From Hyphomicrobiales bacterium (lineage in GTDB: Bacteria; Pseudomonadota; Alphaproteobacteria; Rhizobiales; Beijerinckiaceae): a stretch of 64,000 bases of DNA. Made by a program: the position numbers and the translations under genes. Position 1 is the first letter of the stretch. Every line of letters begins with the position of its first letter. The stretch covers positions 1,599 to 65,598 of the forward strand of contig CANGQA010000005.1 of assembly GCA_947455995.1 (NCBI GenBank), written 5' to 3'. The notes beneath the pieces are model-generated. The model was not told the origin of the DNA. It worked only from the letters and a program-made list of their open reading frames with translations, and searched no databases. Positions 25,819-45,732 of the stretch are shown one piece after another.

Positions 25819-26184
25819 CTAGTCTTTGCAGTCCGATCTCATGCTGCGCCATAACTGGCATTCGGCCCGCCATGCCTGCAACAATGCAATGTGGCGGTTG
25901 ACATCATAATGCGTCTGGTTGCGGTCCAGCCCGGATTGATGCGCCTTGCGCCTTTGTTGCTGCAACGCTTTGCGCAACCTCTCCAAAACCTTTGCTGTCA
26001 TCGCAGGCTCATCGCCTTGTAAATCTGTAGGCCAAATCCGCAGCAAAGGCGGCAGATGCTGAATCCGCACATAGCGTTTGACCCCTGCCTCGATGGTGGC
26101 ATCGACAGCCCGCCAAGCCTGTATCCTCATGATGTGATCAAGCGCTCCATTCACCAGACCTGAAGGGGTGTGAGCTAGGGTCAT
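25819..26184 (-). CDS. Conserved-looking hypothetical protein (121 aa)
   Basis: The ATG at 26184 has a GGAG Shine-Dalgarno 9 nt upstream. The protein is helical and basic (RLRKALQQQRRKAHQ...HYDVNRHIALLQAWRAE). I do not confidently recognise the family. Confidence 0.55.
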   Translation of the reverse strand: MTLAHTPSGLVNGALDHIMRIQAWRAVDATIEAGVKRYVRIQHLPPLLRIWPTDLQGDEPAMTAKVLERLRKALQQQRRKAHQSGLDRNQTHYDVNRHIALLQAWRAECQLWRSMRSDCKD

Positions 26185-26272
26185 AGGTTTTTTCTCCAAA
26201 ATATATTGACAATTTACCTATTATACGAAAATAATCCTATATTACAAATGTCTTGTTGTTCACCTATCCCTA

Positions 26273-30035: not shown

Positions 30036-30542
30036 TTGTCACCGGGGTTGCAGGGTTATTTCAAGAGGCCCGAAGCCATGACATTGATCAGTGAACAGAT
30101 GTTCAAACCCTTTTCCTCATGTCTCACTTCCACCACGACAGATCACGACAACCCGCCCTCACGTTGTTTTTATCACTGCCTGGCCGTTATGCCTTACCAG
30201 AAGGGAGGGCCGGGATGGATATGCAAGCGGTTGGGCCGTTTGCTTGCCAGTGATATTTCGCAACTCGAAGACGGTAAAAGTCCTGCAAAATTGCTCAAAC
30301 GCGGCAAGCTGATTGCCCGTTGGGCCAAAGCTGCCAAAGATCTGAATTCATCCTGCTGCACTGCGCCAGACCCAGATCAGTTGAGGCTCGCCAAGCCGGA
30401 TCAAGCATCTTGCGCAGCCGATCCGATTGCGCCTTATCCAAGGGAGCGGTTGATATCGGAGCCCTTGGGCGTTGAAGCTTTCCGAATGGCTTTGTCCAGG
30501 GAACTTTCCCTGATACGAAATAAAAAGGAAAAAATTCCTTGA
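30036..30542 (+). CDS. Orphan hypothetical ORF (168 aa) upstream of the GTA cluster
   Basis: It is the only sizeable ORF in the 0.8-kb lower-GC gap. It has a basic helical middle (KRLGRLLASDISQLEDGKSPAKLLKRGKLIARWAKAAK), a TTG start, and no family I recognise. Its coding status is uncertain. Confidence 0.3.
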   Translation: MSPGLQGYFKRPEAMTLISEQMFKPFSSCLTSTTTDHDNPPSRCFYHCLAVMPYQKGGPGWICKRLGRLLASDISQLEDGKSPAKLLKRGKLIARWAKAAKDLNSSCCTAPDPDQLRLAKPDQASCAADPIAPYPRERLISEPLGVEAFRMALSRELSLIRNKKEKIP

Positions 30543-30669
30543 AATTGTAACGCTGGTTGGGTATTGTTCTGTTATTGTCCAGTCTTCTGTTTTGTTGTGT
30601 TGAGCCACCCCATCCATTCAATCCAATCCTCTTATCAATATAAACCTCTCAGCTTATTCCCTTTTTCTT

Positions 30670-30701
30670 GGCACGGCAGTATCTCTGCCGTGCCATTTTT
30701 T
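30670..30701 (+). terminator. Strong intrinsic terminator 12 nt upstream of the first GTA gene
   Basis: A perfect 10-bp stem GGCACGGCAG (30670-30679) pairs with CTGCCGTGCC (30685-30694) across the loop TATCT. An A and T6 (30696-30701) follow. The opposite strand has no U-tail. Confidence 0.85.
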
Positions 30702-30712
30702 ATGGATCAGTG

Positions 30713-31255
30713 ATGACCCAATCCATGGCGCAATCGACAATCGCTCCGCTTGACCAGGAGGAGTTGTGCCGACTTTACCGTGACAGCGAGGAGACGGTGG
30801 CCAGTCTGATGGCGCGTTCAGGCTTACGGGCGTCCGAATTCTATCAACTGTTGCGGGATCGTGGCTTGCCGCTCAGGCGTCCGCGCCGATCCAACCGCTC
30901 CGGCAATACAGCACCAGATCCTGAACGGCCCCGGAAGCCTGTGCGCAGGGAGGATCTGATTGCCCGCTTGTGGGAGGCGGCGTCAGGCCATATGGCGCAA
31001 ATTGAAACGCGGCTCGCGCGGCTCGATCAAGAGCAATCCAGCCACCCACCGGCGGCGGGAACCGAGAGTGAACTTCGTATCATGGGCCTGATTGTTAAAA
31101 CCCTGCGTGATCTGGCAGCCCTTGATGCGGATGTCGCGGGGGCGCGGAAGAAGGAGATGGTTCAAGATGACCTTGCCGCCGAACTGGCCACCTGCCCCGA
31201 AAGCATGCGCGCGGAACTGGCTCGACGTCTTGCTGGATTGCGCGAAGGCCGGTGA
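30713..31255 (+). CDS. GTA g1-position protein (putative small-terminase-like)
   Basis: 180 aa, immediately upstream of and overlapping TerL. The N-terminus looks HTH-like (LCRLYRDSEETVASLMARSGLRASEFYQLLRDRGL) and a helical region follows. The assignment rests on position only. The TTG at 30668 in the track spans the terminator hairpin and is rejected. Confidence 0.45.
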   Translation: MTQSMAQSTIAPLDQEELCRLYRDSEETVASLMARSGLRASEFYQLLRDRGLPLRRPRRSNRSGNTAPDPERPRKPVRREDLIARLWEAASGHMAQIETRLARLDQEQSSHPPAAGTESELRIMGLIVKTLRDLAALDADVAGARKKEMVQDDLAAELATCPESMRAELARRLAGLREGR

Positions 31256-32564
31256 GGAAAAACGGATTATTGCCTCTCTGAGCGAACGCGACATTGAATT
31301 CATGCTGGCGGACTGGATGAGTTGGGCGCGGCCTGACCAATGCCCACCTGCTCTATCGCAAACCGGATTGCCATGGACGGTCTGGTTGGTGCTGGGTGGA
31401 CGCGGGGCAGGCAAAACCCGCACAGGCGCAGAGTGGGTCCGCGGTATGGCTATCGGACTACCACCCTTTGCCGATCGCCCTGCCGGGCGTATTGCTTTGG
31501 TGGGGGAAACCCAGGCCGATGTCCGCGATGTGATGATCGAGGGAGTGTCGGGCCTGTTGTCTGTCCACAGACGGGACGAGCGGCCAGTCTGGCAGGCCTC
31601 GCGCCGAAGGCTTGAATGGCCTAACGGCACCATCGCACAGACTTTTTCCGCGGAAGACCCCGATAGTCTCCGCGGTCCGCAATTCGATGCTGCTTGGCTT
31701 GATGAATTGGGAAAATGGCGGCGTGCCGAAGAGACCTTCGACATGTTGCAATTCGGCTTGCGGCTGGGTGCCCAACCTCGTCAGACAGTGACAACGACGC
31801 CACGTCCGGTGCCTTTGTTGAAGCGGCTGATGGAAGATCCCGCAACAGCCATTTCCCGCGCGGCTACCCGTGCCAATGCCTTCCATCTGGCGCCATCATT
31901 TCTTGATGCCGTGGTCAAGCGCTATGCGGGAACGCGATTGGGCCGGCAAGAGCTGGAAGGCGAATGGCTGGATGAGCGCAATGATGCGCTGTGGACGCGC
32001 GCCGCATTGGAAATCTGCCGGATCGGGGTCGGAGACACGCCGCCACTTCAACGACTGGTGATCGCAATCGACCCGCCCGCCAGTTCGGGTCGGGATTCGG
32101 ATTCTTGCGGGCTGATCGTTGCGGGAATTGACGTCAACCGGACGGTCTATGTGCTCAATGATGCCACGCTGCCCCAAGCCCGCCCGCATGTCTGGGCAGG
32201 AAAGGCTGCTGCTCTTTATCGGGACTACGAGGCTGATGCCGTGGTGATTGAAACCAATCAGGGCGGCGAGATGGCCGAAGCGGTGTTGCGGGAAGCTGAT
32301 CCCGAATTAGCGGTGCTGCCGGTTCGTGCCACCAGAGGCAAGATGCTGAGGGCCGAACCTGTCGCGCTGCTTTACGAACAAGGACGAGTGAAACATGCAG
32401 GACTTTTCCGTGAGCTTGAAGATGAGATGTGCGATTTCGGCCCTAATCGGGAGGGTTGGGGTCTGTCGAACGGCCATTCGCCGGACCGGCTTGATGCTCT
32501 GGTCTGGGCTGTTACGGCTTTGGCCTTGGGCCCCAAAGCCACCCCACGCGTGAGACGGTTGTAA
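31167..32564 (+). CDS. GTA/phage terminase large subunit (g2-like)
   Basis: It has a Walker A motif (LVLGGRGAGKTRTGAEW), an N-terminal LSERDIEFMLADWMSWARPDQ typical of GTA TerL, and a C-terminal nuclease region. The start is uncertain (ATG 31167 or TTG 31230). It overlaps g1 in another frame. Confidence 0.9.
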   Translation: MTLPPNWPPAPKACARNWLDVLLDCAKAGEEKRIIASLSERDIEFMLADWMSWARPDQCPPALSQTGLPWTVWLVLGGRGAGKTRTGAEWVRGMAIGLPPFADRPAGRIALVGETQADVRDVMIEGVSGLLSVHRRDERPVWQASRRRLEWPNGTIAQTFSAEDPDSLRGPQFDAAWLDELGKWRRAEETFDMLQFGLRLGAQPRQTVTTTPRPVPLLKRLMEDPATAISRAATRANAFHLAPSFLDAVVKRYAGTRLGRQELEGEWLDERNDALWTRAALEICRIGVGDTPPLQRLVIAIDPPASSGRDSDSCGLIVAGIDVNRTVYVLNDATLPQARPHVWAGKAAALYRDYEADAVVIETNQGGEMAEAVLREADPELAVLPVRATRGKMLRAEPVALLYEQGRVKHAGLFRELEDEMCDFGPNREGWGLSNGHSPDRLDALVWAVTALALGPKATPRVRRL

Positions 32565-32609
32565 GGGCCACGCATCCCTCGGCCTCCCGCACTCCGACAC
32601 TGCAAGGAC

Positions 32610-33812
32610 ATGACCATGAGCACTTTTGTTGATCGCTGGTTGCGGCGGGCTTTTGCACGCCCCGATCACACCAAAACCTCCGCCACCGGACCGATGATGG
32701 CCCTCTACCAAACGGGGCGTCCGGTGTGGACACCCCGTGATTACGCGAGTTTGGCCAAAGAGGGCTTCCAGAGCAATCCGATCGTCTATCGAGCAGTCCG
32801 CATGATTGCGGAAGCCGCTGCTTCGGTGCCTTTTCTGCTCTATGATGGCCGTAAGGAATTGGTCGATCATCCTTTGATGCGGTTGATGACCACGCCCAAT
32901 CCGCGTGACAGTGGCACGGTGCTGCGCGAGGCCCTGATTGGCTACCTGCTGGTCTCGGGCAATGCCTATCTGGAAGCGGTTTGTGATGCAGGACAGGTGC
33001 GCGAGATCTATGCCTTGCGACCGGACCGAATGCGGGTGGTGCCAGGCGGGGATGGCTGGCCTGCCGCTTATGATTATCATGTCAACGGGCAATCTGTGCA
33101 GTTCGACCAGGATGCTGTGCCTGTTCCGCAAATCTTGCATCTGACCCTGTTCCATCCGCTCAATGATCATTATGGCCTGTCGCCGATGGAAGCGGCTGCG
33201 GCTTCTATCGACATTCATAATGCGGCGGGAGGATGGAACAAGGCACTGCTCGACAATGCGGCGCGACCGTCCGGTGCCTTGGTCTATGCCGGACCACCAG
33301 GGGCCACTTTGGGGGCCGAACAATTTGAACGTTTGAAAAATGAGCTGGAAGCCTCCTTTCAAGGCTCAGCCAATGCGGGGCGTCCTTTGCTGCTGGAAGG
33401 GGGGCTGGATTGGAAGCCGTTATCGCTTACCCCGAAGGATATGGATTTTATGGAGGCCAAATCGGCCGCTGCCCGTGACATCGCGTTGGCCTTCGGCATC
33501 CCTCCGATGCTGCTGGGTCTGCCAGGGGATAATACCTATGCCAACTATGCGGAAGCCAACCGGATTTTCTGGCGGCAGACCGTGATCCCGTTGTCCAGCC
33601 GGATTGCAACAAGCATCACGCATTGGCTTGCGCCTGTTTATGGGCATGTCACCTTGCAGCCGGATCTGGACCGGATCGATGCGCTGTCTCTTGAGCGTGA
33701 CGCCCTTTGGGCCCGCCTGGGCAAGGCCGACTTTCTGACTGATGACGAAAAACGGGAAGCGGTTGGCTACGGCCCTCTTCATGCTGCCGGAACCGTAAAA
33801 GGCCAGCCATGA
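32610..33812 (+). CDS. HK97-family portal protein (g3-like)
   Basis: 400 aa with NPIVYRAVRMIAEAAASVPFLLY and MEAKSAAARDIALAFGIPPMLLG motifs. An AAGGA Shine-Dalgarno precedes the start. Confidence 0.9.
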   Translation: MTMSTFVDRWLRRAFARPDHTKTSATGPMMALYQTGRPVWTPRDYASLAKEGFQSNPIVYRAVRMIAEAAASVPFLLYDGRKELVDHPLMRLMTTPNPRDSGTVLREALIGYLLVSGNAYLEAVCDAGQVREIYALRPDRMRVVPGGDGWPAAYDYHVNGQSVQFDQDAVPVPQILHLTLFHPLNDHYGLSPMEAAAASIDIHNAAGGWNKALLDNAARPSGALVYAGPPGATLGAEQFERLKNELEASFQGSANAGRPLLLEGGLDWKPLSLTPKDMDFMEAKSAAARDIALAFGIPPMLLGLPGDNTYANYAEANRIFWRQTVIPLSSRIATSITHWLAPVYGHVTLQPDLDRIDALSLERDALWARLGKADFLTDDEKREAVGYGPLHAAGTVKGQP

Positions 33813-33991
33813 ATGCCGGTCTGGATATGATTGTCGCACGCGGGGATTTGGCTGATCTAGCCCTGTTCCTGTGGGCGTCGGGAGCCTCGACAGCTCTGGC
33901 CGTCACTTTGCGCCAGCTTGGTGAGGCCAATCGCCGTTTTGATGAATTCATCCGGCAACTACACCACTTCAACAGCCATTGGGATGGCTGA
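33809..33991 (+). CDS. Small ORF coupled to portal (g3.5-position, one hydrophobic helix)
   Basis: 60 aa. Its ATG overlaps the portal stop (ATGA). It has one hydrophobic segment (LADLALFLWASGASTALAVTL). Confidence 0.45.
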   Translation: MNAGLDMIVARGDLADLALFLWASGASTALAVTLRQLGEANRRFDEFIRQLHHFNSHWDG

Positions 33992-34021
33992 CCTTAAAGC
34001 GTAAAACGGGAGATATCTGCC

Positions 34022-34228
34022 ATGCTTGACCGTTTGTCTGTCGATCTGCCCCAGCCGTCATTGGTGCCGGATGATCCTGCAGAAGCGAACGAAACCCTGA
34101 AGGTGCAGGCCCGGTTTTGGCAGCATCTTGTCCGCCTGACTGCTCCGGCCCGCCGCCTCCAGCAAATCCGCAAAGACTTTGCTGGCGGGCGTGAACCGCA
34201 GAACGCGTTGCGGGAGGGTTTGTTGTGA
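34022..34228 (+). CDS. Small ORF coupled to the prohead protease gene
   Basis: 68 aa. Its stop overlaps the GTG start of the protease (GTGA). I do not recognise the family. Confidence 0.4.
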   Translation: MLDRLSVDLPQPSLVPDDPAEANETLKVQARFWQHLVRLTAPARRLQQIRKDFAGGREPQNALREGLL

Positions 34229-34701
34229 TCGAACATCATCCCTCCAAGGCTGATGTACCGGTCGGTGAATTTGACGGTTATGCAAGCCTGTTCGGCCAGC
34301 CTGATCTGGGCCGTGATGTTGTTGCCAGCGGGGCCTTCGGTGAAAGCCTTGCCCGGCGCGGCGGTGCGGCTGGAATCAGGCTTTTGTGGCAGCATGATCC
34401 TTCCCAGCCCATCGGTGTCTGGACCGAGATACGGCAGGACCAGCACGGGCTCTATGTGCGCGGTGCGCTGAACCTGTCGGTCGCACGCGGGGGCGAATTG
34501 TTCGCGCTCTTGCAACAGGGCGCGTTGGGGGGGCTGTCAATCGGCTACCGCACCCAGAAGTCCTACGCGGATGCCCGCCACAGCGTGAGGATTTTAACCC
34601 GCATCGATCTTTGGGAAGTGTCGCTCGTGACATTTCCTTTACTGCCCTCGGCCCGTGTGTTGCGGGTTGCGGGATCCCCCTCGAACCGGAGACACTCATG
34701 A
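34225..34701 (+). CDS. HK97-family prohead protease (g4-like)
   Basis: It has FDGYASLFGQPDLGRDVVASGAF, LLWQHDPSQPIGVW and GLSIGY motifs. Confidence 0.85.
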   Translation: MIEHHPSKADVPVGEFDGYASLFGQPDLGRDVVASGAFGESLARRGGAAGIRLLWQHDPSQPIGVWTEIRQDQHGLYVRGALNLSVARGGELFALLQQGALGGLSIGYRTQKSYADARHSVRILTRIDLWEVSLVTFPLLPSARVLRVAGSPSNRRHS

Positions 34702-35987
34702 CAAGTTCCAATACTTCTGTGCAGTCCTCGTTGCTGCCCCCTGTTTTGCTGGCACCGGAAGTGAAGGCTTTTGACGCCGAACCCATTGATGCGCTCACCA
34801 CAGTCAATCGCCATTTCGAGGCCTTCAAGGACGGGAATGACCAGCGTCAGTCGCTGATCGACAAAGGCCGTTCGGTCGATGTTTTGATGGAAGAAAAACT
34901 GGCCCGTATGACCCATGCACTGGACGAGGCGCAAAGCAGATTGGAGAGCGCTTTACGTCAGCAACGCCGTCCGATGCTGGAGGGTGCCGAGCATGACTAT
35001 ACCAGCCCGCAACACCGCCACTATAAAAGTGCCTTCCACGATTACATGCGCTCTGGCGAAACATCCGGCCTGAAGGCACTCGAGCTCAAAGCGTTGTCCG
35101 CAGGCAGTCAGACCGATGGAGGCTATTTGGTAACACCGCCAGTCGAACGCGACATTCTCAAGCGTATGTCCGTGGCCTCACCGATCCGTTCGATTGCCAC
35201 AGTCCAGCAGATTTCAACCGCGACCTATCGCAAAGCCTATTCGACCACCGGGCCGGGAGCAGGATGGATCGGCGAAGTCGTGGCGCGCCCGCAAACCACC
35301 TCGCAGGTGATTGCCGATCTGAGTTTCCCGACCATGGAACTCTATGCCATGCCTGCAGCAACCCAGACTTTGCTGGATGATGCGGCGGTCAATGTCGAAC
35401 AGTGGATTGCCGATGAGGTGCAGGTTGTGTTTGCCGAGCAAGAAGGCGCAGCCTTCGTCAATGGTGATGGCACAACCAAGCCGCTCGGCTTTATGACACC
35501 GGCAAAAATTGCACAGGCCAACTGGAGCTGGGGCAAACTCGGCTATACCGTCACGGGGCTGTCGGCAGGCTTCACTGCCACCAATGGATCGGATGCGCTG
35601 ATTGATCTGATCTATTCGGTCAAGGCGGGCTATCGCCAGAGCGGACGTTTTGTGATGAACCGCAAGACGCAGGCGGCGATCCGCAAGCTCAAGGCCACAA
35701 CGGGCGAATATTTGTGGCAACCTCCGGCCATATTGGGCCAGCCTGCGACCTTGATGAATTTTCCGCTCGTCGAGGTCGAGGACATGCCCGATATTGCCGC
35801 CGATAGTTTTTCTGTTGCCTTCGGCAATTTCGCCCGCGCATATCTGATCGTCGACCGGATCGGTATCCGGGTGTTGCGTGATCCTTATTCCAACAAGCCC
35901 TATGTGATGTTCTACACCACCAAACGCGTGGGAGGTGGAGTGCAGGATTTCGATGCCATCAAACTGTTGAAATTCGGCACGGTCTGA
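34698..35987 (+). CDS. HK97-family major capsid protein (g5-like)
   Basis: The ATG at 34698 overlaps the protease stop (ATGA). It has an N-terminal scaffolding-like coiled coil, then DGGYLVTPPVERDI and GEYLWQPP motifs. Confidence 0.9.
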   Translation: MTSSNTSVQSSLLPPVLLAPEVKAFDAEPIDALTTVNRHFEAFKDGNDQRQSLIDKGRSVDVLMEEKLARMTHALDEAQSRLESALRQQRRPMLEGAEHDYTSPQHRHYKSAFHDYMRSGETSGLKALELKALSAGSQTDGGYLVTPPVERDILKRMSVASPIRSIATVQQISTATYRKAYSTTGPGAGWIGEVVARPQTTSQVIADLSFPTMELYAMPAATQTLLDDAAVNVEQWIADEVQVVFAEQEGAAFVNGDGTTKPLGFMTPAKIAQANWSWGKLGYTVTGLSAGFTATNGSDALIDLIYSVKAGYRQSGRFVMNRKTQAAIRKLKATTGEYLWQPPAILGQPATLMNFPLVEVEDMPDIAADSFSVAFGNFARAYLIVDRIGIRVLRDPYSNKPYVMFYTTKRVGGGVQDFDAIKLLKFGTV

Positions 35988-36008
35988 GGACCGATTTGAT
36001 GCGGCGCC

Positions 36009-36794
36009 TCACCGATTCAGGGTCTTGTCGATCCATGCACGCTGGGGTGCCAGCATGATACCTTGGGTCATGGCCCCGCAACGGGCTTGACCCTTGCCTT
36101 CGCTCCAGACCGTGATGGCTTGCAACACGCCGTCACGGTCGAAGATGCCGCCACCGGAATCGCCTGTGCAGGCACCCTGGTTGGCTTGTCCGGCGAGCCA
36201 AAGCAACAGCTTGCCCTGTCCGTAGGGCGTGACCACGGGGAGGGTGATCTGCCGCAAGGTGCCTGTGCTATCTGGCTGGGCCTCGCTCGACAGGCCGAAC
36301 CCTTGAATAGTCAAGCGTGTGTCTTTGGGGCTTGGAGGCTGACGGGATGGCGGCAGCTTGGCCGGTGCGAAACTGTCGGGCAAAATACGTTTCACCTGCA
36401 CAATCGCAAGGTCGATCGAACGGCTGCGCGCAGCAATGGCATCGCTGTGATAATCGGGATGGATGGTGATCCGTTTGGGCTCTTCCATGACAGGCTTGCC
36501 GTCAGCCCCGCGCCAATGCAAGCGGTAGGCAGACCCGCCTGTTACGCAATGGGCCGCTGTCAAAACGGAATCTGGTCCAATGACCACTCCGGAGCAGACC
36601 GAGCCGCGATCGGACAAGACCATCAGCATCGGATTTTCACCCGGGGGCACGCTCTGTCCACCGACAATGGCCCGAACCGGTGCGGTGGTGATCAGTATTG
36701 CGCCCAAGGCGAGCATGGCCAGATGGGCGATCATGATGCCGGAGCGTAAGGGATTCAGATCAATCAAGAGTGAAGACCTCTTTTTGAAAACCAT
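36009..36794 (-). CDS. Secreted trypsin-like serine protease (peptidase S1 family)
   Basis: The signal peptide ends ...APVRA, directly followed by IVGG. The catalytic triad contexts are LTAAHCV, IDLAIV and CTGDSGGGIF. It is antisense to the GTA genes. The start is 36794 (MVFKKR...) or 36734. Confidence 0.85.
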   Translation of the reverse strand: MVFKKRSSLLIDLNPLRSGIMIAHLAMLALGAILITTAPVRAIVGGQSVPPGENPMLMVLSDRGSVCSGVVIGPDSVLTAAHCVTGGSAYRLHWRGADGKPVMEEPKRITIHPDYHSDAIAARSRSIDLAIVQVKRILPDSFAPAKLPPSRQPPSPKDTRLTIQGFGLSSEAQPDSTGTLRQITLPVVTPYGQGKLLLWLAGQANQGACTGDSGGGIFDRDGVLQAITVWSEGKGQARCGAMTQGIMLAPQRAWIDKTLNR

Positions 36795-36825
36795 TTTTCT
36801 TTTCCACTCATCGGAGATTTTGCAG

Positions 36826-37386
36826 ATGATGTCCATGCAATTGATCGCGGAACCGCTTGTCGAGCCGGTGACATTGGACGAGGCGAAGCTGTTTTTGCGG
36901 ATCGACACCCTTGATGATGATGCGTTGTTGGCCAATCTGATCATGGCTAGCCGCCGCGTGATCGAACTCACAACCCGAACCTGTCTGCTGCAACAGACGT
37001 GGCGATTTGGGGTTGATCGTTGGCCGTCGAACACGTTGCTGCGCTTGCCATTGGCTCCACTTCAGTCTGTGTCCTCTGTGACTGTGATGGACGCAAGGGG
37101 CAATCGGCTTGCGCAAAATGTGCTCGATTTCCTGGCGAACCCAACCAGTGTGCCGCCCACTGTTATGGCCAAAACCGTCCCGCCTGTCAGTGCTGCTCGT
37201 GAGGGCGGTATCCAGGTCGATGCTGTGCTTGGTTATGGCAGCACCGCTGCATTGGTCCCTCAGCCTTTACGGATGGCGGTGTTGATGGTGCTGGCACAAT
37301 ATTATGAAACGCGGGGGCAGGGGGACGGCACACTGCCTGCGGCTGTGCGGACATTGATTGCACCGTTTACACGGAGGGCCTTATGA
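36826..37386 (+). CDS. Head-tail connector/adaptor (gp6-like, g6)
   Basis: The N-terminal signature EPVTLDEAKLFLRIDTLDDDALLANLIMASRRVIE identifies it. The stop overlaps the next start (ATGA). Confidence 0.8.
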   Translation: MMSMQLIAEPLVEPVTLDEAKLFLRIDTLDDDALLANLIMASRRVIELTTRTCLLQQTWRFGVDRWPSNTLLRLPLAPLQSVSSVTVMDARGNRLAQNVLDFLANPTSVPPTVMAKTVPPVSAAREGGIQVDAVLGYGSTAALVPQPLRMAVLMVLAQYYETRGQGDGTLPAAVRTLIAPFTRRAL

Positions 37387-37748
37387 GCACGCCCTTGCAT
37401 GACGCCGGTTTGCGGGCCCGTGACCCTGCATTGGCGGGCCGTCTGCGCGACCGCCTGAGTGTGGAAGTGCCTATTGATGTGCCCGATGGATATGGCGGGC
37501 TGACCCGAAGTTATCAGGTTAGCACCAAAGTCTGGGGGATGATTGTGCCTTATCAGATCAGGACAGGACGCGGGCCTGATCAGGACGGGCAGGTGATCAG
37601 CCATTTGGTTGTGATGCGCTGGCGCGGTGATATCGAAATCGGGATGCGGCTGCGCAAGGGTACACGCCTCTTGCGGATCTGCGAGTTGGCCGATGCCGAC
37701 GGACGGCGGATGCGGATGGTGTGTCTGTGCGAGGAGGATCACGCATGA
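37383..37748 (+). CDS. Head closure / head-tail joining protein (g7-like)
   Basis: 121 aa with LRDRLSVEVPIDVPDGYGGLTRSYQVSTKVWGMIVP, typical of the SPP1 gp16/HK97 gp8-type family. Confidence 0.75.
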   Translation: MSTPLHDAGLRARDPALAGRLRDRLSVEVPIDVPDGYGGLTRSYQVSTKVWGMIVPYQIRTGRGPDQDGQVISHLVVMRWRGDIEIGMRLRKGTRLLRICELADADGRRMRMVCLCEEDHA

Positions 37749-38182
37749 CTGTGACAGTCCCTATCATCACGGGTCCGGTCCTGGCTGTGCGCGAGAGGCT
37801 GCGTAATTTCTGGTTGGCCGATTCCGTGCTGCTCGGCTTGCTGGGTGGCGAGAAGATTTACGATACAGCCCCGCGTTCGGTCATTCCGCCTTATGTGACC
37901 TTTGGCAGCGTGACAGCCAGACAATGGCTCGGCGGCAGCCAGCGTGGTCATGAGCAGAATATCACGATTACTGTCTGGTCGCGCCAGATTTCGGACCGCG
38001 AAAGTCTTGAGATCGCAAGTCGGATGAGCCTGATCAGCGATGGCGCTTTGCTGTCTATGGCGGATTATCAGCTTTGGCCCTTGCAGGTGTTGAACCTTGA
38101 TTGTCCGCAAGGCACGCCGCAAGGTTTGCGGCAGACGGTCGTGGTCCTGCGGGCGCTGACTGCGCCAATCGCTAGAACCTAG
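37745..38182 (+). CDS. DUF3168 tail-completion/terminator-like protein (g8-like)
   Basis: It has the motif KIYDTAPRSVIPPYVTFGSVTARQW. The ATG overlaps the g7 stop. Confidence 0.7.
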   Translation: MTVTVPIITGPVLAVRERLRNFWLADSVLLGLLGGEKIYDTAPRSVIPPYVTFGSVTARQWLGGSQRGHEQNITITVWSRQISDRESLEIASRMSLISDGALLSMADYQLWPLQVLNLDCPQGTPQGLRQTVVVLRALTAPIART

Positions 38183-38484
38183 TAAAGCGGTATTTGCTGG
38201 AGCGCGGCATTGATGTCGGCGCGGGCCTGGCTCTGCTGGTTGGTCAGCATGACGAGAAACTCCTCGCTGGCTGGTTCAATACCGGTTTCGATCGCGAAGA
38301 TATTATGGCTGAGCGAGGTGTAGTAGGCGACAAGGCGGCGGAACACCGGATCACGGTGTTTAAGACGCGCAAAATTGGCGGCCTGATCCGCAAATTCCTC
38401 CTCGACTGAAAGCAGCACAGGGGAGACCACCAAACCCGGATCTTCGGGGTGCGATGGCGGCTCATCTGGATTGGGATCACTCAC
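38179..38484 (-). CDS. DUF465 (YdcH-like) small protein with an acidic/Pro-rich N-terminal extension
   Basis: FARLKHRDPVFRRLVAYYTSLSHNIFAIETGIEPASEEFLVMLTNQQSQARADI follows the DUF465 pattern (..HF.RL..eY......I...E....p.sde.l..LKk.rL.lKDEI). Its stop overlaps the g8 stop within CTAG. Confidence 0.65.
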   Translation of the reverse strand: MSDPNPDEPPSHPEDPGLVVSPVLLSVEEEFADQAANFARLKHRDPVFRRLVAYYTSLSHNIFAIETGIEPASEEFLVMLTNQQSQARADINAALQQIPLY

Positions 38485-38595
38485 AGCAACAACTCCTGAT
38501 TCATCGAGAATTCATAGCCCTAACCTGCATGTCCGACAACCGGACAGAATGGGCTTGGCAGCAGCAGCTTTTTGAAACGGTTATGGCGAGGATGC

Positions 38596-39255
38596 ATGAA
38601 TACGGATTTTCACGAAGTGGTTTTTCCGCTGGCCTTGTCGATGCAGGCCCGCGGCGGGCCGCAGCGGCATACAAACATCGTTACCACTGGCGCAGGTCGC
38701 GAGAACAGGATCAGCCGTTGGGCCTATTCACGATATCACTACGACATCGGCTCAGGAATAAAAACACGCGCTGATCTGGCGTTGCTGCTGAGCTTTTTTG
38801 AGGAACGGCGCGGGGCGTTTTACGGCTTCCGTTTCCGTGATCCGCTCGATCACTCCAGTGCGGAGCCGGATATGGCCGTGACGCCGTTCGATCAGCCGAT
38901 CGGGCAGGGTGATGGCACGCGTCTGGCGTTTCAACTGGTCAAAACCTATGGCGCTGCGTTTGCGCCTTATGCGCGACCTATTTTCAAGCCTGTTGCCGGA
39001 ACTCTCCGGCTTGCTGTGGCGGGAGTGGAGGTCGCACTGGGGCAAAATGCCGATTGTGATCCGCGCACGGGACTGGTGCGCTTTCGTTCGGGCCATTGTC
39101 CGGCGCCCGGGCAGACGGTAACCGCAGGTTTTGAATTCGATGTCCCCGTGCGTTTTGCCGATGATCGGCTGGAAGCAGCTCTCGATGCTTTCGGAAGCGG
39201 CGAGATCACCAAAATCAGTTTGATCGAATTGCTCTGCCAACCGGAAAAGGCATGA
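38596..39255 (+). CDS. GTA distal tail protein (DUF2460 / TIGR02217-like, g12)
   Basis: The hallmark N-terminus is MNTDFHEVVFPLALSMQARGGPQRHTNIVTTGAGRENRISRWAYSRYHYD. A GAGGA Shine-Dalgarno lies 6 nt upstream. Confidence 0.85.
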   Translation: MNTDFHEVVFPLALSMQARGGPQRHTNIVTTGAGRENRISRWAYSRYHYDIGSGIKTRADLALLLSFFEERRGAFYGFRFRDPLDHSSAEPDMAVTPFDQPIGQGDGTRLAFQLVKTYGAAFAPYARPIFKPVAGTLRLAVAGVEVALGQNADCDPRTGLVRFRSGHCPAPGQTVTAGFEFDVPVRFADDRLEAALDAFGSGEITKISLIELLCQPEKA

Positions 39256-39256
39256 G

Positions 39257-40138
39257 ATGATGCGTGATATTCCTCAAAGCCTGACGGGTGATGCCGCCAC
39301 CCATGCCTTGTGCTGGCGTGTCATGCGGCGCGATGGCGTGGTGCTGGGTTTTACCCAACATGATAAAGATTTGATATTCGGCGGGATAACGCATGAGGCG
39401 CGCAGCAGGCTGGATGTGGAGTCTGCACATCAGCTGGCGGGCTTTGCTGGCAGCGAAGCCGTATTGCTGGGTGCGCTTGTTTCTGAAAGTGTGACACAGG
39501 CCGATATAGTGGCAGGTCTGTATGACCATGCAACCATCGAGACATGGCTGGTCAATTGGAACGACCCAACCCAATGCGTCCTGCTCGATTGCGGATCGAT
39601 CGGATGGATCGAGTCTTCCGATCAGGGGTTCAAGGTCGAGGTGCGCTCCGTCGTTGACCAGTTGATGCAGCCACTGGGCCGTTTGTTCCAGGCCCATTGC
39701 TCGGCCGATTTGGGCGATAGCCGTTGCGGCATTGCTTTGAAGGGTCCGGGGTTTCGGCTTGAGGGCATCGTCCGCAATACCGATGGCCGCTCCATGCTGT
39801 CCATGGATTCGGGAGGCTTCGGCGCCGATGGGTTCAGCCGTGGCGTTTTGCACGTGCTTGATGGGGGCAATGCGGGCATGCGGGCGGATATCAAGACACA
39901 TGATGTCAACGGCGGTCAGGCGCAAATCAGTCTGTGGCAGGCCTTGCCTTTCATGCTTGGAGTCGGTGATCGCGTCGCTGCCATTGCAGGGTGTGACAAG
40001 ACCATCGGCACCTGCCAGACGCGCTTTGGCAATGCCGCTAATTTCCGTGGCTTTCCGCGTATGCCAGGCAATGATCTGTTGATCCGTCGGGTGAATGATG
40101 GCGAGGCGGGTATGGATGGCGGGAGTCTTTTCCAGTGA
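39257..40138 (+). CDS. GTA hub protein (DUF2163 plus phage BR0599-like C-terminus, g13)
   Basis: It has THALCWRVMRRDGVVLGFTQHDKDLIFGG and a C-terminal CDKTIGTCQTRFGNAANFRGFP. Confidence 0.85.
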   Translation: MMRDIPQSLTGDAATHALCWRVMRRDGVVLGFTQHDKDLIFGGITHEARSRLDVESAHQLAGFAGSEAVLLGALVSESVTQADIVAGLYDHATIETWLVNWNDPTQCVLLDCGSIGWIESSDQGFKVEVRSVVDQLMQPLGRLFQAHCSADLGDSRCGIALKGPGFRLEGIVRNTDGRSMLSMDSGGFGADGFSRGVLHVLDGGNAGMRADIKTHDVNGGQAQISLWQALPFMLGVGDRVAAIAGCDKTIGTCQTRFGNAANFRGFPRMPGNDLLIRRVNDGEAGMDGGSLFQ

Positions 40139-40596
40139 TCCCCTCCATGACAACGGACACCTTGGCCAAATGCGTGGTGGATGAGGCACGTCGATGGATT
40201 GGCACTCCCTATCTCCATCAGGCCTCGTTATGCGGGGTAGGTTGTGACTGCCTCGGTCTGGTGCGTGGTATCTGGCGGACCTTATATGGCGAAGAGCCCG
40301 AACCCTTGCCTCATTACAGTGCCGATTGGGCCGAGGCATCGGGCAGCGAACAGTTATTGCGAGCCGGACACAGGCATTTCATACCGGTTGCTATGGCGGA
40401 TATGGCAGCCGGAGATGTGGTGCTTTTCCGCTGGCGCGCCGGGTGTCCAGCCAAACACATGGGCGTGTTTTCTGGCGACGGCACCATGATCCATGCCCAT
40501 GCGGGTGCGTCCGTCGCAGAGGTGCATTTCGGTATCTGGGCACGCCGCATCGCACAGGTTTTTCGCTTTCCGACGCCAGATCAACGGGGTGAATGA
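40135..40596 (+). CDS. NlpC/P60 cell-wall peptidase (g14-like)
   Basis: It has WIGTPYLHQASLCGVGCDCLGLVRGIW (catalytic Cys) and GTMIHAH (His). Both ends overlap their neighbours. Confidence 0.85.
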   Translation: MIPSMTTDTLAKCVVDEARRWIGTPYLHQASLCGVGCDCLGLVRGIWRTLYGEEPEPLPHYSADWAEASGSEQLLRAGHRHFIPVAMADMAAGDVVLFRWRAGCPAKHMGVFSGDGTMIHAHAGASVAEVHFGIWARRIAQVFRFPTPDQRGE

Positions 40597-43500
40597 TGGG
40601 CACTTTGATCTTGAATGCTGCGCAAGGATCAGTGCGCGCCACAGCGGGTGGATTGATCGGTCATGGGGTCGGTTCCCTGCTGGGCGGTGGTCCGATTGGC
40701 TCGATGTTCGGACGTATCGCAGGGCAGGCATTTTCTGGTGCTTTGTCAGATCACCGGACCCGCTTGCATGATGGCCCGCGTCTGCATGATATGCCGGTGA
40801 TGGGGGCGACGGAGGGTGCGCCCATTCCCAAAGTCTATGGACGGGCCCGCATCGGGGGCACTTTGATCTGGGCAACCCGTTTTGCCGAAGTGATTACCCA
40901 GACTGAAACCGAAACAGGCTCGGGTGGAACGTCTGGCGGGCTTGGCTTTAAGGGCGGTGGCGGCGGGAGTTCCACCCTCAACCGGACCTATTCATATTAT
41001 GGCAATTTCGCCGTCGCCGTGTGCGAGGGCCCGGTGGCATTTATCAGGCGGATCTGGGCGGACGGCCAATTGCTCGACCATCAGGCCGTGACATTGCGCA
41101 TCTATCGCGGTGATGAAAGTCAGCAGCCAGATCCACTGATCGTGGCCAAGGAGGGAGCGGCCAATACGCCGGCCTTTCGCGGAACGTGTTATGTGGTTTT
41201 CGAGCGGATGCCGCTTGCCGCTTTCGGCAATCGTTTGCCGCAACTGAGTTTCGAGGTGGTGCGTCCGGTCAATGGTATCGGCCAAAAAATTCGCAGCATC
41301 AATCTGATTCCGGGATCGGGAGAATTTGTCTATGGCGTGACTGCCACCTCACGCGATTTTGGGCAGGGGAACAGCCAGTCCGAAAGCCGCCATGACCTGT
41401 CTGGAGCATCCGACTGGATGGTCTCGCTGGATGCATTGCAGGCATTGTGTCCCAATCTGCAGCATGTGCAACTGGTGGTGAGCTGGTTCGGCGATGATTT
41501 GCGGTGCGATAGCTGCACCGTCGCACCGCGTATCGAGATGGCCGGCAAAGCAACGATCGGTGCCCAATGGACGGTGGCAGGATTGGCGCGGGTGGGCGCA
41601 CGGACGGTCAGTCAAATCAATGGACGCGCGGCTTATGGAGGCACCCCGTCTGACCAGTCGGTCATGGAGGCGATAACCGATTTGCACCGTCGGGGGCTCG
41701 CGGTGACGCTTTATCCGTTTTTGATGATGGATATTCCACCCGACAACACGCTGCCCGATCCCTGGAGCGGAACCGATAGGCAGGCGGCCTATCCTTGGCG
41801 TGGGCGGATCAGCTGTGCACCTGCACCCGGTCAAGCCGGTTCGCCCGATGGAACTCTTGCGGCAGCCACGGCGGTCCAGAAATTTTTCGGCAATGCCACC
41901 GCTGCCCAATTCAGCTATCGCAACGGCGTGGTTTTTTCGGGCGGTGCGGAATGGTCGTGGCGCCGCATGGTCTTGCATTATGCAACGCTTGCCAAAGCAG
42001 CCGGAGGGGTCAACGGCTTCATTATCGGATCGGAATTTGTAACACTGAATCATATCCGCAGCGGCATAGGAACCTTTCCCGGGCCGATCGCTTTTGCCCG
42101 TCTGGCAAATGAGGTGCAATCCGTGCTGGGAACCGCAACGGTGCTGACCTATGCGGCTGACTGGACAGAATATGGCGGTTACAGCCCGGGCGCAGGCGAA
42201 TTGCGATTTCCGCTCGATGTGCTGTGGGCGCATCCGGCGATCGGGGCGGTGGGGATTGATGCCTATTGGCCCGTATCCGATTGGCGTGACGGCAACCAGC
42301 ACCGCGATTTAGCCCAAGCTGAAACCATCTATGATCCCGCCTATCTTTCGACTTGCATGATATCGGGTGAAAACTTTGACTGGTATTATGCCAGCCCTTC
42401 AGATCGGCAAGCCCAGTTGCGCACTCCCATCACTGATGGCCGCATCAACAAGCCATGGGTGTGGCGTGCAAAGGATATCCAGGGCTGGTGGTCCAATCAA
42501 CATTTCGAGCGCTTGAATGGCTCGGAATACGCTAATCCCACGCCGTGGCAGCCCTTCTCGAAACCGATCTGGATGACCGAAATAGGCTGTCCTGCGGTGG
42601 ACAAGGGAGCGAATGCCCCCAATGTCTTTCCCGATCCTAAATCCTCCGAGGCGGCTTTGCCGCCTTTTTCGCTCGGCGAGCGTGACGATGTCATGCTGTT
42701 GCGTTTTATCGAGTCTGTCTTGCTGGCTTTTGATCCGCACCAGGGCGCGGATGCCAGCCGTAATCCAACGTCGCCAGTCTATGGCGGGCGGATGATCGAC
42801 GCGGACCGCATCAGCTTTTGGGCCTGGGATACACGGCCGTTTCCGGCCTTTCCGATGATGGGCGATGTCTGGGCCGACAACGGCAATTGGCAAACCGGAC
42901 ATTGGTTGACAGGACGCCTTGAAAGCATCTCGCTCGATGGCCTGATGAAATCGATGCTGGATGATGCCGGTCTCAGTGTGGCTTTGACGGGGCGTATCGA
43001 CGAGGTGATCGATGGTTATGTCGCCGATCATCCGATGAGCGTGGCCGAGATGGTCGCTCCCTTATGTGATCTGCTTGATATCGAGGTGGCGGTAACGGGA
43101 GCGGGTCTGCGTCTGCTGGCATCAAAGCGCAAGCCAGTTGCACAACTGATGCGAGATGATTGTGTGGCCCTGCCCAACGGGGCATTGTTTGAACACCACC
43201 GCAAACGGGAAACAGGTTTACCGAGTGAATTGGCTTTGAGCTTTACTGAGTCTGAAGCTGATTATCGTCGTGCCGTAGTATCTTCCCGGCGGCTGACGGG
43301 TCGGGTTGGGCACAAGGCGCTGGCTGAATTTGCACTGGTGACACGCCGGTGCGAAGCCCAGCGTATGGCCGATACATGGTTGCATCGCCTTTGGACAAGC
43401 CGTGACGAAGTGACGTTTGCATTGACGCCGCGCTGGATCGGACTTGAGGTTGGTGATGTGGTCATGCTGCCGGTCACCGATCTGGCAGGGACCTTTGTCA

Positions 43501-44558
43501 TTACATCAATTCGTGAACAAGGCACGCGGCTGATCACAGCTCGTGCTATTGCCGATACGATCGGTAAAGCCCGGCCAGTTTCTATGCCCGCCCTTCATAT
43601 GAGCGCACCGAAACTGGCCAGTCGTCCATGGGTGGCGATTTTCGATTTGCCGATCACGATGGGATCACCGGTGGTGATGCAAGTGATTGCTGCCTTTGCC
43701 GATCCTTGGCCTGCAAGCCTAACAGTCTGGCGGTCTGCCGACGCGGTGTCCTATGATCCTGTTTTGACGCTGGATGCTCCTGCACGGCTCGGCAAGCTGC
43801 TCGGCGATTGCCCTGCTGGCCGTCTTTGGGTGTGGGATGAGTCCTGTTCTTTGACCATCGAGTTGCAAGGCGGGGTCTTGACCAGTCCGGGCGATCTCAA
43901 CGGATTGAGCGGTTCGCCCGCTCTGGCGATCGAGGGAGCAGACGGGACATGGGAGGTTATCAGCTTTGCACGGGCCGAATTGGTCGGACCCAAACAATGG
44001 CGGTTGAGCCGTTTGCTGCGCGGTCTGGGCGGGTCAGAACTTGCAGCGCAGCGCTTTGTCGCCGCCGGTGCACGTTGCGTTGTGCTCGACAGGGCGGTCA
44101 AGCCATTGCGGCAGGGGCTGTCTGCTTTAGGAGAGGTTTGGCATTGGCGTGTTGCGGCTTCGCATCTTGACTATTCCGACACGATGGCTGTGGCACTCGA
44201 TTCAACGGTCAGTGGAGCGGCTTTGATCCCTCTGTCTCCGGTGGGGCTGACCACCAAACGGACCCCGCAGGGCATTGTGCTGAACTGGATCAGGCGCGCA
44301 CGCTCGGATGCAGATGGATGGGGTGTGTCGGATATTCCGATGGATGAGGACGTCGAGGCCTATCAAGTCAGCATTATCAAACAAGGCCAGACCATCCGGC
44401 AGATGATGGTTTCGACCACCAGCTGCCTCTATGCCGCCACTGATGAATGGGCTGATTTCGGGCAGGCACAAAGCCGTCTCTGGGTCAGTATCAGGCAGAT
44501 CAGTTCAGCTGTCGGACCTGGTGCTGCGCTGACAGCACATGCGACTATCCTCTCGTAA
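40593..44558 (+). CDS. GTA host-specificity / baseplate megatron protein (g15-like)
   Basis: 1321 aa, a size and position that match RcGTA g15. It has an N-terminal Gly-rich segment, a central glycoside-hydrolase-like TIM region and a C-terminal phage-tail host-specificity-like region. Confidence 0.8.
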   Translation: MMGTLILNAAQGSVRATAGGLIGHGVGSLLGGGPIGSMFGRIAGQAFSGALSDHRTRLHDGPRLHDMPVMGATEGAPIPKVYGRARIGGTLIWATRFAEVITQTETETGSGGTSGGLGFKGGGGGSSTLNRTYSYYGNFAVAVCEGPVAFIRRIWADGQLLDHQAVTLRIYRGDESQQPDPLIVAKEGAANTPAFRGTCYVVFERMPLAAFGNRLPQLSFEVVRPVNGIGQKIRSINLIPGSGEFVYGVTATSRDFGQGNSQSESRHDLSGASDWMVSLDALQALCPNLQHVQLVVSWFGDDLRCDSCTVAPRIEMAGKATIGAQWTVAGLARVGARTVSQINGRAAYGGTPSDQSVMEAITDLHRRGLAVTLYPFLMMDIPPDNTLPDPWSGTDRQAAYPWRGRISCAPAPGQAGSPDGTLAAATAVQKFFGNATAAQFSYRNGVVFSGGAEWSWRRMVLHYATLAKAAGGVNGFIIGSEFVTLNHIRSGIGTFPGPIAFARLANEVQSVLGTATVLTYAADWTEYGGYSPGAGELRFPLDVLWAHPAIGAVGIDAYWPVSDWRDGNQHRDLAQAETIYDPAYLSTCMISGENFDWYYASPSDRQAQLRTPITDGRINKPWVWRAKDIQGWWSNQHFERLNGSEYANPTPWQPFSKPIWMTEIGCPAVDKGANAPNVFPDPKSSEAALPPFSLGERDDVMLLRFIESVLLAFDPHQGADASRNPTSPVYGGRMIDADRISFWAWDTRPFPAFPMMGDVWADNGNWQTGHWLTGRLESISLDGLMKSMLDDAGLSVALTGRIDEVIDGYVADHPMSVAEMVAPLCDLLDIEVAVTGAGLRLLASKRKPVAQLMRDDCVALPNGALFEHHRKRETGLPSELALSFTESEADYRRAVVSSRRLTGRVGHKALAEFALVTRRCEAQRMADTWLHRLWTSRDEVTFALTPRWIGLEVGDVVMLPVTDLAGTFVITSIREQGTRLITARAIADTIGKARPVSMPALHMSAPKLASRPWVAIFDLPITMGSPVVMQVIAAFADPWPASLTVWRSADAVSYDPVLTLDAPARLGKLLGDCPAGRLWVWDESCSLTIELQGGVLTSPGDLNGLSGSPALAIEGADGTWEVISFARAELVGPKQWRLSRLLRGLGGSELAAQRFVAAGARCVVLDRAVKPLRQGLSALGEVWHWRVAASHLDYSDTMAVALDSTVSGAALIPLSPVGLTTKRTPQGIVLNWIRRARSDADGWGVSDIPMDEDVEAYQVSIIKQGQTIRQMMVSTTSCLYAATDEWADFGQAQSRLWVSIRQISSAVGPGAALTAHATILS

Positions 44559-44586
44559 CACGACTTTTTATAGAAGGATCAATCCT

Positions 44587-45732
44587 ATGGCGCAAACGGC
44601 TCGGCTCGGTCTGGCACTGATGGCAGCAGCGCAGGCACAAAAACATGTGACCCATAATGATGCATTGCTGTCGCTCGATGCGCTTGTTCAGGCGGTGGTG
44701 CTGGAAACGGACCGTCTGTCTCCACCGGCCGTGCCGCAAGAGGGCGATGCTTATCTGATCGGCACATCGCCCACAGGTGCATTTGCAGGGCAGTCCGGCA
44801 TGCTGGCAGCTTACCTGACAGGAAGTTGGCGGTTCTTTCAGCCACAAACGGGTTGGCTGGTTTTTGCCAAAAGCCGCAATGCGCTGATGGTGCTGAGTGG
44901 TGGCAGCTGGCATGTGCTGGATGATCTGGCCCAAAGCTTTGCCAATCTCAAAAGTCTTGGCATCGGAACCAGTGCGGATTCGACCAACCGGCTTGCAGTC
45001 AAAACCAATGCCGCCTTGTTCGTAGCCACCAGTGCAACCGAGGGCGGCAGTGGTGATTTACGGGTGGTGTTCAACAAGCCCTTGCCTACGGGGACTGTCT
45101 CGCATCTTTTCCAGTCCAACTGGTCCGGGCGAACCGAATTGGGGCTGACCGGGGATGACCAGTTCCATATCAAAGTCTCGCCCGATGGCAGCTCATGGAC
45201 CGAGGCACTGGTTTGCTCCCCCGCCAATGGCACGGTGCGGATGGATAGAGTGCTGACAGGCCGCGCGACGCCTCGTGTGACCGCTTGCTACGAGGCTGAA
45301 TTTTCAGGGGCAAGCAAGCTGGGTATCGCGCTCAATGACAGCGGTGCCGCGGCATCCACAGCCATCAGCTTTAGTCGCTCGGGTGTGCTGATCGGTTCGG
45401 TCGGTTTGGCAACTGCCGGTGTCAGTTTTAACACCACATCGGATTATCGCCTCAAGACGGCAATCAAGCCGCTATCATGTGCCGTCAATCGGCTCAAACA
45501 GCTCAGAGCACTGCGCTACGAATTTATCTCCCAACAGGGGCATGAGCTTGATGGATTTTTGGCGCATGAGGTTGCAGATGTGGTTCCAGAAGCGGTGACA
45601 GGAACCAAAGACGGTATCGACGAGCAAGGTCTTCCGGTATGGCAGCAACTCGACCAGACCCGCTTGATCCCTTTGCTGGTCGCAGCTTTGCAGGAGGTGC
45701 TGATCCGCCTTGAAACTCTCGAAACCCATTGA
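44587..45732 (+). CDS. DUF2793-type tail fibre with a C-terminal peptidase S74 intramolecular-chaperone domain
   Basis: The N-terminus is TARLGLALMAAAQAQKHVTHNDALLSLDALVQ...GDAYLIG. The C-terminus, SDYRLKTAIKPL..AVNRLKQLRALRYEF...GFLAHEVADVVPEAV...LIPLLVAALQEV, matches the autocleaving chaperone module. Confidence 0.7.
   Translation: MAQTARLGLALMAAAQAQKHVTHNDALLSLDALVQAVVLETDRLSPPAVPQEGDAYLIGTSPTGAFAGQSGMLAAYLTGSWRFFQPQTGWLVFAKSRNALMVLSGGSWHVLDDLAQSFANLKSLGIGTSADSTNRLAVKTNAALFVATSATEGGSGDLRVVFNKPLPTGTVSHLFQSNWSGRTELGLTGDDQFHIKVSPDGSSWTEALVCSPANGTVRMDRVLTGRATPRVTACYEAEFSGASKLGIALNDSGAAASTAISFSRSGVLIGSVGLATAGVSFNTTSDYRLKTAIKPLSCAVNRLKQLRALRYEFISQQGHELDGFLAHEVADVVPEAVTGTKDGIDEQGLPVWQQLDQTRLIPLLVAALQEVLIRLETLETH

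Follow-up and report, generated by a model that had tools for sequence, protein, structure and literature searches.

A gene transfer agent (GTA) cluster of the Rhodobacter capsulatus type (RcGTA) lies at positions 30713-45732 of a 64-kb stretch of DNA from a Hyphomicrobiales bacterium (contig CANGQA010000005.1), the whole of which is called here the window. The cluster is missing g9 (tail tube), g10 and g10.1 (tail-assembly chaperones) and g11 (tape measure). This absence is genus-wide and traces to a single ancestral loss, and the rest of the cluster is under purifying selection. We conclude that the element is probably a vertically inherited chromosomal GTA, tube-less since the ancestor of the genus and kept by selection, with a GafA-like activator encoded nearby. 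Only tentatively do we suggest that it might be a working GTA with a stub tail devoid of tube and tape measure, its terminator hexamer placed on the distal-tail ring, in a probably free-living freshwater genus.

The gene list was compiled from open reading frame (ORF) coordinates and translations, and families were assigned by Pfam, NCBIfam and PHROG searches of the window's proteins. The window's own assembly is 94% complete and consists of 158 contigs. The genus sample comprises six genomes, this one and five others, all of them draft metagenome-assembled genomes (MAGs) of 85-100% completeness, two of which reach 98-100%. G001, G002, G003 and G005 denote members of the genus, and G008 a member of a sister genus. 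In addition, 80 related loci were fetched with the g12 protein and the window's proteins were mapped onto each. The nearest relative is a MAG from the water of Lake Erken with about 87% protein identity to the window; genome size across the genus is 2.5-3.1 Mb, and its lifestyle is probably free-living and freshwater.

In the window, 390 bp separate the end of g8 from the start of g12 (393 bp in the nearest relative). Both genes could be placed in about 53 other loci, and there this interval measures at least 1,540 bp and contains g9 (Phage_tail_2), g10 (Phage_TAC_11), g10.1 (Phage_TAC_6) and g11. Searching the whole window assembly by tblastn with the g9, g10, g10.1 and g11 proteins of five relatives gave nothing below E 0.3, and the g9 family PF06199 was not found anywhere in it; none of the six genus genomes has a member of it, whereas 17 of the 19 other genera in the taxonomic family do. 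A profile built from seven g11 proteins reaches E 1e-77 to 1e-81 in both sister genera that were tested, and its only match in the genus genomes is a marginal one (E 0.0096, G001). PF11836 (g10) is likewise missing from the genus genomes and present in sister genera, and the generic tape-measure and tube families, PF10145 and PF04630, have no member in the six genomes. As none of these searches gave tail genes, relocation of the block to another place in the genome was rejected. So were replacement genes near the cluster: orf168, orf131 and ORFs of 184, 265 and 295 aa have no phage-family match. A glycine-zipper protein at 48210-48788 was considered as a tape measure, and rejected, its weak match to a tape-measure PHROG (E 0.009) being judged most likely compositional.

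The junction itself, g8 followed by a small antisense gene and g12, recurs on contigs of four genus members, which are independent assemblies. In the sister genus (G008) the order is g8-g9-g10-g10.1-g11, then an antisense DUF465 gene, then g12. Pfam DUF465 recognises the orthologues of the antisense gene in G008 (E 4e-17) and Rhodoblastus (E 8e-10), both of which stand between g11 and g12; the copy in the window matches no Pfam family. Since the DUF465 gene already occupies that place in sister genera, its insertion belongs to the wider family and is older than the deletion, which took out precisely g9 to g11. The stop codons of g8 and of the DUF465-like gene now overlap in one palindromic CTAG in the window. 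A concatenated tree of five GTA proteins resolves (((window, G003), G005), G008) with 100% support and a monophyletic genus, whose stem is 0.21 substitutions per site long and whose internal depth is about 0.35. A single deletion in the ancestor of the genus is the parsimonious reading.

What is left of the cluster is well preserved. The families of g2, g3, g4, g5, g6, g7, g8, g12, g13, g14 and g15 are all recognised, in RcGTA order, by Pfam, NCBIfam or PHROG, and 13 of 13 structural genes have a family match. The features are listed below with the ratio of non-synonymous to synonymous substitution rates (dN/dS), computed between the window and G003 for all GTA genes and between the window and G001 for g7 through the fibre.

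30713..31255, plus strand: g1-position gene, 180 aa, given a small-terminase role from position alone.
31092..32564, plus strand (longest-ORF limits): g2, large terminase (TerL), with Terminase_6N and Terminase_6C; dN/dS 0.05.
32610..33812, plus strand: g3, portal, Phage_portal E 4e-89 over profile positions 1-320 of 321; dN/dS 0.08.
33809..33991, plus strand: small ORF in the g3.5 position, 60 aa, no family match; dN/dS 0.065.
34022..34228, plus strand: second small ORF, 68 aa, GTGA overlap onto g4, 65% identity to G003; dN/dS 0.37.
34225..34701, plus strand: g4, prohead serine protease, Peptidase_S78 E 5e-29; dN/dS 0.22.
34695..35987, plus strand: g5, HK97-fold major capsid, Phage_capsid E 3e-86 over the full profile; dN/dS 0.09.
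36009..36794, minus strand: secreted trypsin-like S1 protease, antisense between g5 and g6, Trypsin E 3e-27; dN/dS 0.19.
36826..37386, plus strand: g6, head-tail adaptor, TIGR02215 E 2e-43 over positions 1-185 of 188, and Phage_connect_1; dN/dS 0.21.
37383..37748, plus strand: g7, head closure (stopper), Phage_HCP E 5e-16, PHROG 25 'head closure Hc1'; dN/dS 0.07-0.15.
37721..38182, plus strand: g8, tail terminator, PF11367 Tail_completion_gp17 (formerly DUF3168) E 4e-11, PHROG 176 'tail terminator'; dN/dS 0.15-0.18.
38179..38484, minus strand: DUF465-like gene, 101 aa, in place of g9-g11, orthologues matching DUF465; dN/dS 0.24-0.26.
38182..38596, no strand: deletion scar, the g8-to-g12 interval of about 0.4 kb without g9, g10, g10.1 and g11.
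38596..39255, plus strand: g12, distal tail protein, DUF2460 E 6e-76, TIGR02217 'distal tail protein, Rcc01695 family' 257 bits; dN/dS 0.09-0.10.
39257..40138, plus strand: g13, baseplate hub, PF09931 (N-terminal) and PF09356 (C-terminal); dN/dS 0.15-0.17.
40135..40596, plus strand: g14, cell-wall peptidase, NLPC_P60; dN/dS 0.16-0.18.
40593..44558, plus strand: g15, megatron (baseplate multidomain protein), 1321 aa, NF048004 GTA_megatron equivalog 1587 bits over positions 1-1297 of 1299; dN/dS 0.09-0.11.
44587..45732, plus strand: tail fibre, DUF2793 N-terminus and Peptidase_S74 intramolecular chaperone, many PHROG tail-fibre families; dN/dS 0.07-0.09.

The NCBIfam cut-offs are 800 bits for NF048004 and 137 bits for TIGR02217. 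Within g15, Pfam recognises GTA_TIM (E 4e-126), Phage-tail_3 and Rcc01698_C. The four Fe-S cysteines of the hub (C148, C157, C246 and C253) are invariant across 14 taxa, and the conserved Cys and His columns of the g14 peptidase are intact.

The original prediction, made from the sequence, had proposed a GTA cluster with most of these genes; profile searches of the ORFs find every gene that it named in the place it gave, and the translated TerL contains the Walker A motif GGRGAGKT. Its match to the RcGTA order g1-g8 and g12-g15 also stands, the gap at g9-g11 having been left undiscussed. Its colinear forward series holds as a gene order and is interrupted by the two antisense genes at 36009-36794 and 38179-38484. 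A gene does stand in the small-terminase position, where its assignment comes from location: the protein has no match in Pfam, NCBIfam or PHROG (83% identity to G003 and 47% to G005; dN/dS 0.22). Gene junctions had been described as mostly 4-nt ATGA/GTGA overlaps, and from the ORF coordinates such overlaps are real at g3/g3.5a, g3.5b/g4, g6/g7, g13/g14 and g14/g15. At the g1 stop (junction 31251-31304), however, the GTGA offers a GTG that does not lie in frame with TerL. The true TerL start lies downstream of 31092, for instance at M26 (31167, inside g1) or at M71 (ATG 31302), the exact site being uncertain.

The 60-aa ORF in the g3.5 position is strongly conserved (47-92% identity) in many relatives; the 68-aa one is weakly supported as a real gene. 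The trypsin-like gene is an old insertion: G003, G005 and G008 have it between g5 and g6 as well, as do loci of Methylobacterium/Methylorubrum and Rhodoblastus.

Every GTA gene compared between the window and G003 has dN/dS between 0.05 and 0.24, at a synonymous divergence (dS) of 0.5-1.0, and the comparison with G001 gives the same picture. Flanking housekeeping genes have ratios in the same range. In the more distant G005 all genes are full length despite only 33-78% identity to the window's proteins. For tube-bearing control pairs (one in Methylocystis, two in Hyphomicrobium) the ratios are 0.03-0.41; at the two genes bordering the deletion they are 0.15-0.18 in the tube-less genus versus 0.21-0.41 in tube-bearing pairs for g8, and 0.09-0.10 versus 0.12-0.21 for g12. 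Constraint on the tube-less cluster equals that on canonical tube-bearing clusters. On a fixed topology, the GTA genes of the genus evolve 1.35-2.3 times faster than those of G008; the response-regulator control shares this rise (2.2 times), so the acceleration is not specific to the GTA. We also considered whether selection on g8 and g12 had relaxed, or the two genes had changed in a burst, once the block was gone; both ideas were rejected, as per-gene branch lengths give no signal beyond the lineage-wide rate rise. That the remaining genes are maintained by selection for some function is, in our view, very likely.

The chromosomal setting is that of a resident element. As had been predicted, housekeeping genes flank the cluster: upstream one for a CxxCxxCC protein, downstream those for a response regulator and a histidine kinase. 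The cluster stands between the same flanks not only in members of the genus but also in its sister genera and in other families of the Hyphomicrobiales. Its GC content (0.57-0.59) resembles that of most of the window (0.55-0.57), again in line with the prediction. No integrase, repressor, replication gene or att site was found within 10 kb on either side, no tRNA lies at the cluster, and no flanking direct repeats exceed chance 14-25-mers. Branching in the concatenated GTA protein tree tracks taxonomy at the levels of genus, family and order, the relevant nodes having 100% support. The placement of an RcGTA-type cluster in the core genome is thus borne out by shared flanks and by the tree. Grouping of its genes with bona fide temperate phages had been named as the observation that would count against a GTA; in the capsid tree, the sequences from such clusters, the window's included, group together, and 99% support separates them from the four capsids of bona fide phages that match best. 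Presence/absence variation with att sites among close relatives had been named as another; it was largely not seen, no att sites being found, though one MAG of 85% completeness (G002) shows no cluster genes. We regard the identification as an RcGTA-type cluster as close to certain.

Some database records touch on the phage comparison. The two best 'phage' matches are metagenomic contigs. MW091529.1 (L105), filed as 'Bacteriophage sp.', carries the full canonical g1-g15 followed by two genes in the position of the two-component pair, and looks like bacterial DNA filed as phage. In MW462191.1, a GafA-like match lies about 29 kb away from the capsid gene.

A published completeness criterion asks for all 14 genes other than g1, g3.5 and g7, and surveys discard clusters that fall below it (PMC10883770); the window's cluster has 10 of the 14. 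With g9, g10, g10.1 and g11 missing it falls short of this criterion, and GTA activity therefore cannot be assumed. One of the absent genes, g9, is among the 11 GTA-Hunter markers. In an order-wide sample of 301 genomes, about 12 of the 219 that bear a megatron are without g9 (about 5%, by manual comparison). Two g9-less genomes elsewhere in the order were inspected and neither is a second clean tube-less case, one being a degraded remnant and the other a contig end. The remnant, at locus L103 (G175:C1:3604001-3624000), is that of G175, from another genus of the order that is without g9 (three genomes): unlike in the window's cluster, all that is left within 20 kb around the match is TerL and a truncated megatron (about 730-760 aa).

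The RcGTA tail is a stack of hexamers, namely one stopper (g7), one terminator (g8), five tube discs (g9) and one distal-tail ring (g12); the g7, g8, g9 and g12 proteins share one fold, and the DNA is held in place by the tape measure and an iris in the baseplate (PMC7296036). Given this common fold and the hexameric stacking of stopper, terminator, tube and distal tail protein, g8 could plausibly sit on the g12 ring instead of on a tube disc.

We now set out a history, and propose a particle, for the tube-less cluster. One ancestral deletion took g9, g10, g10.1 and g11, after which g8 abutted the older antisense DUF465 gene. Selection since then has kept packaging and head (g1-g5), neck (g6-g8), baseplate (g12-g15), fibre and the regulator pair. 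DNA-filled heads would join via g6, g7 and g8 straight to the g12 ring and the baseplate, whose iris alone would retain the DNA, and the resulting particle would be stub-tailed and podovirus-like. Because head-tail joining is the only known role of g6-g8, all of which are constrained, and because baseplate and fibre are kept, the particle with g8 on g12 is the most economical model. That the retained function is such a particle, still delivering DNA, we treat as a serious possibility, somewhat short of probable.

Several points weigh against this proposal and the reading behind it. Characterised siphoviruses need tube and tape measure for tail building, and we know of no stub-tailed derivative of this kind shown experimentally. 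On the genus stem, neither g8 nor g12 has the burst of substitutions that could be expected after a change of partner. The two antisense genes within the cluster complicate its expression as a single operon. Neither g12 nor the capsid was found in G002, and in G001 the head half is missing at a contig end. All genomes of the genus are MAGs of 85-100% completeness, as stated above, and hidden Markov model searches cannot detect non-homologous replacement proteins.

The same limits feed the idea that the GTA is in fact complete, with the genes for tube, chaperones and tape measure lying outside the cluster, in DNA missing from the assemblies or in forms too divergent or unrelated to be recognised. 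All six genomes are drafts, RcGTA itself is spread over five loci (PMC5026251), and for incomplete clusters Shakya 2017 suggests that components may have been split off or replaced (PMC5721377). We nonetheless find it quite unlikely: the g9, g10 and g11 profiles are empty in six genomes, two of them nearly or fully complete, yet reach E 1e-26 to 1e-81 in sister genera; PF10145 and PF04630 are missing too; and the cluster's own proteins match nothing else in the assembly. The genes could also serve a use other than transfer, for example tail-less DNA-filled heads freed at lysis, or separate head and baseplate-plus-fibre modules. Purifying selection proves function and not which one, and George 2022 does not settle what reduced GTAs do (PMC9254644). 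Against such a use stand the neck genes g6, g7 and g8, which are constrained as in canonical clusters and have no other known role than joining head to tail, and the fact that head, neck, baseplate and fibre still form one co-oriented cluster with a GafA-like gene nearby. We rate it as unlikely.

A decaying relic, in which the GTA died with the deletion and its other genes have yet to erode, would fit with the sporadic loss of g9 in about 5% of the order's megatron-bearing genomes, with G175 being a remnant and with G002, where no cluster genes were seen. Yet the lineages have diverged to dS 0.5-1.0 (G005 further) since the shared deletion, and over that time the 13 genes have acquired no stop or frameshift, their dN/dS stays at 0.05-0.24 and key residues are intact, which leaves this explanation very unlikely. 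Finally, all the genes have phage homologues, and a megatron-like gene at 41% identity occurs in genuine Rhodobacter phages, so that a defective or cryptic temperate prophage may be considered in place of a GTA. It is barely credible in view of the missing integrase, repressor, replication gene, tRNA and att repeats, the same chromosomal site and flanks across families, a gene tree that tracks taxonomy and a capsid clade apart from the best phage matches. A selected, chromosomally inherited tube-less GTA is the reading we prefer.

Compared with RcGTA itself, the cluster shares the g2-g8 and g12-g15 families and their order, the megatron equivalog, the Rcc01695-family distal tail protein, the hub with four Fe-S cysteines, the NlpC/P60 peptidase and the DUF2793 fibre. 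In both, too, a small gene lies divergently beside a regulator of the DUF6456 (GafA) type, the chromosomal site is fixed, and integrase and replication genes are missing. It differs in that the window's genus is without g9, g10, g10.1 and g11, two antisense genes lie inside the cluster, and the g1-position protein, of 180 aa, has no family match. Moreover, the fibre and gafA-like genes adjoin the window's cluster, whereas those of RcGTA are at distant loci.

Unexplained incomplete GTA clusters have been noted before, and whether they are dead was left open (PMC5721377). In Rickettsiales and Holosporaceae endosymbionts, GTA heads are retained under purifying selection while tail parts are missing; reduction, undetected divergence or recruitment of unrelated genes were considered as explanations (George et al. 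2022, PMC9254644). The window's cluster resembles these in keeping head and portal, in missing tail parts that include the tube, and in dN/dS below 1. However, those hosts are obligate endosymbionts with strongly reduced genomes, whereas the genus studied here consists of 2.5-3.1 Mb lake MAGs and falls within the canonical Hyphomicrobiales GTA clade. The endosymbiont clusters are often scattered, with many tail parts lost or pseudogenised; here only the tube, chaperone and tape-measure block was lost, cleanly, and neck, baseplate, fibre and regulator are intact and constrained like those of complete clusters.

Clusters of the RcGTA type are common in Hyphomicrobiales, which makes the presence of one ordinary; what is unusual is the tube-less state maintained by selection. 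Its history is legible: one block deletion, genus-wide, then long divergence with undiminished constraint on the remaining genes. It probably extends the reduced-GTA pattern, published for endosymbionts, to a lineage that is probably free-living, and similar losses reported in other alphaproteobacterial lineages suggest that such a change may recur. The case is a testable one of a long-tailed phage machine that may lose its tube and measuring protein yet stay useful to the cell. If the stub-tailed model is true, a natural change from siphovirus-like to podovirus-like morphology would have been fixed by one clean deletion. The case also argues that GTA surveys, which discard incomplete clusters, undercount functional elements.

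Regulatory features lie upstream of the cluster:

25819..26199, minus strand: small DUF6477 gene, divergent from the GafA-like gene, Pfam DUF6477 E 9e-6; dN/dS 0.21 versus G003.
26273..27151, plus strand: candidate GafA/GafZ-like activator, 292 aa, Pfam DUF6456 E 4e-42; dN/dS 0.20.
30539..30567, plus strand: promoter-like element TTGAAA-17-TATTGT upstream of the leader hairpin, from a consensus scan only.
30669..30701, plus strand: intrinsic-terminator-like hairpin with a T6 run, 11-bp stem with 8 GC pairs, 12 nt before the g1 ATG.

The DUF6456 gene is 3.5 kb upstream of the cluster, and the DUF6456/DUF6477 pair adjoins the cluster in G003, G005 and G008 as well, with dN/dS of about 0.2. Among the control genomes, the DUF6456 family matched only Caulobacter. 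GafA homologues carry the DUF6456 annotation, and in R. capsulatus rcc01866 is divergent beside gafA (PMC9638019). A phage-database search for a link between DUF6477 and rcc01866 matched nothing, which is why we liken the two by gene arrangement only. Genes for MucR and MsrB are found directly upstream of the pair.

Anti-termination control by GafZ has been shown in Caulobacter crescentus, whose GTA (CcGTA, with GafYZ) shares with the window a DUF6456-type regulator and a terminator structure at the start of the cluster; the CcGTA terminator follows the first gene and consists of 150-bp repeats, while the window has a single hairpin and T-run before g1 (PMC11150451). By analogy, the GafA-like protein would probably drive expression by anti-termination through the hairpin-bearing leader. 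G003 has TTGACA-17-TAGAGT at the place equivalent to the promoter-like element. Its hairpin differs from the window's at three stem positions with pairing kept, and in G005 a hairpin of different stem sequence occupies the same place. The retention of position while the stem sequence changes suggests a functional attenuator or anti-termination target, as judged from comparison of the leaders; the hairpin could also be a plain terminator of the upstream ORF. Counterparts of the leader hairpin within the genus are located at 1118-1153 of L087 and at 17081-17049 of L089.

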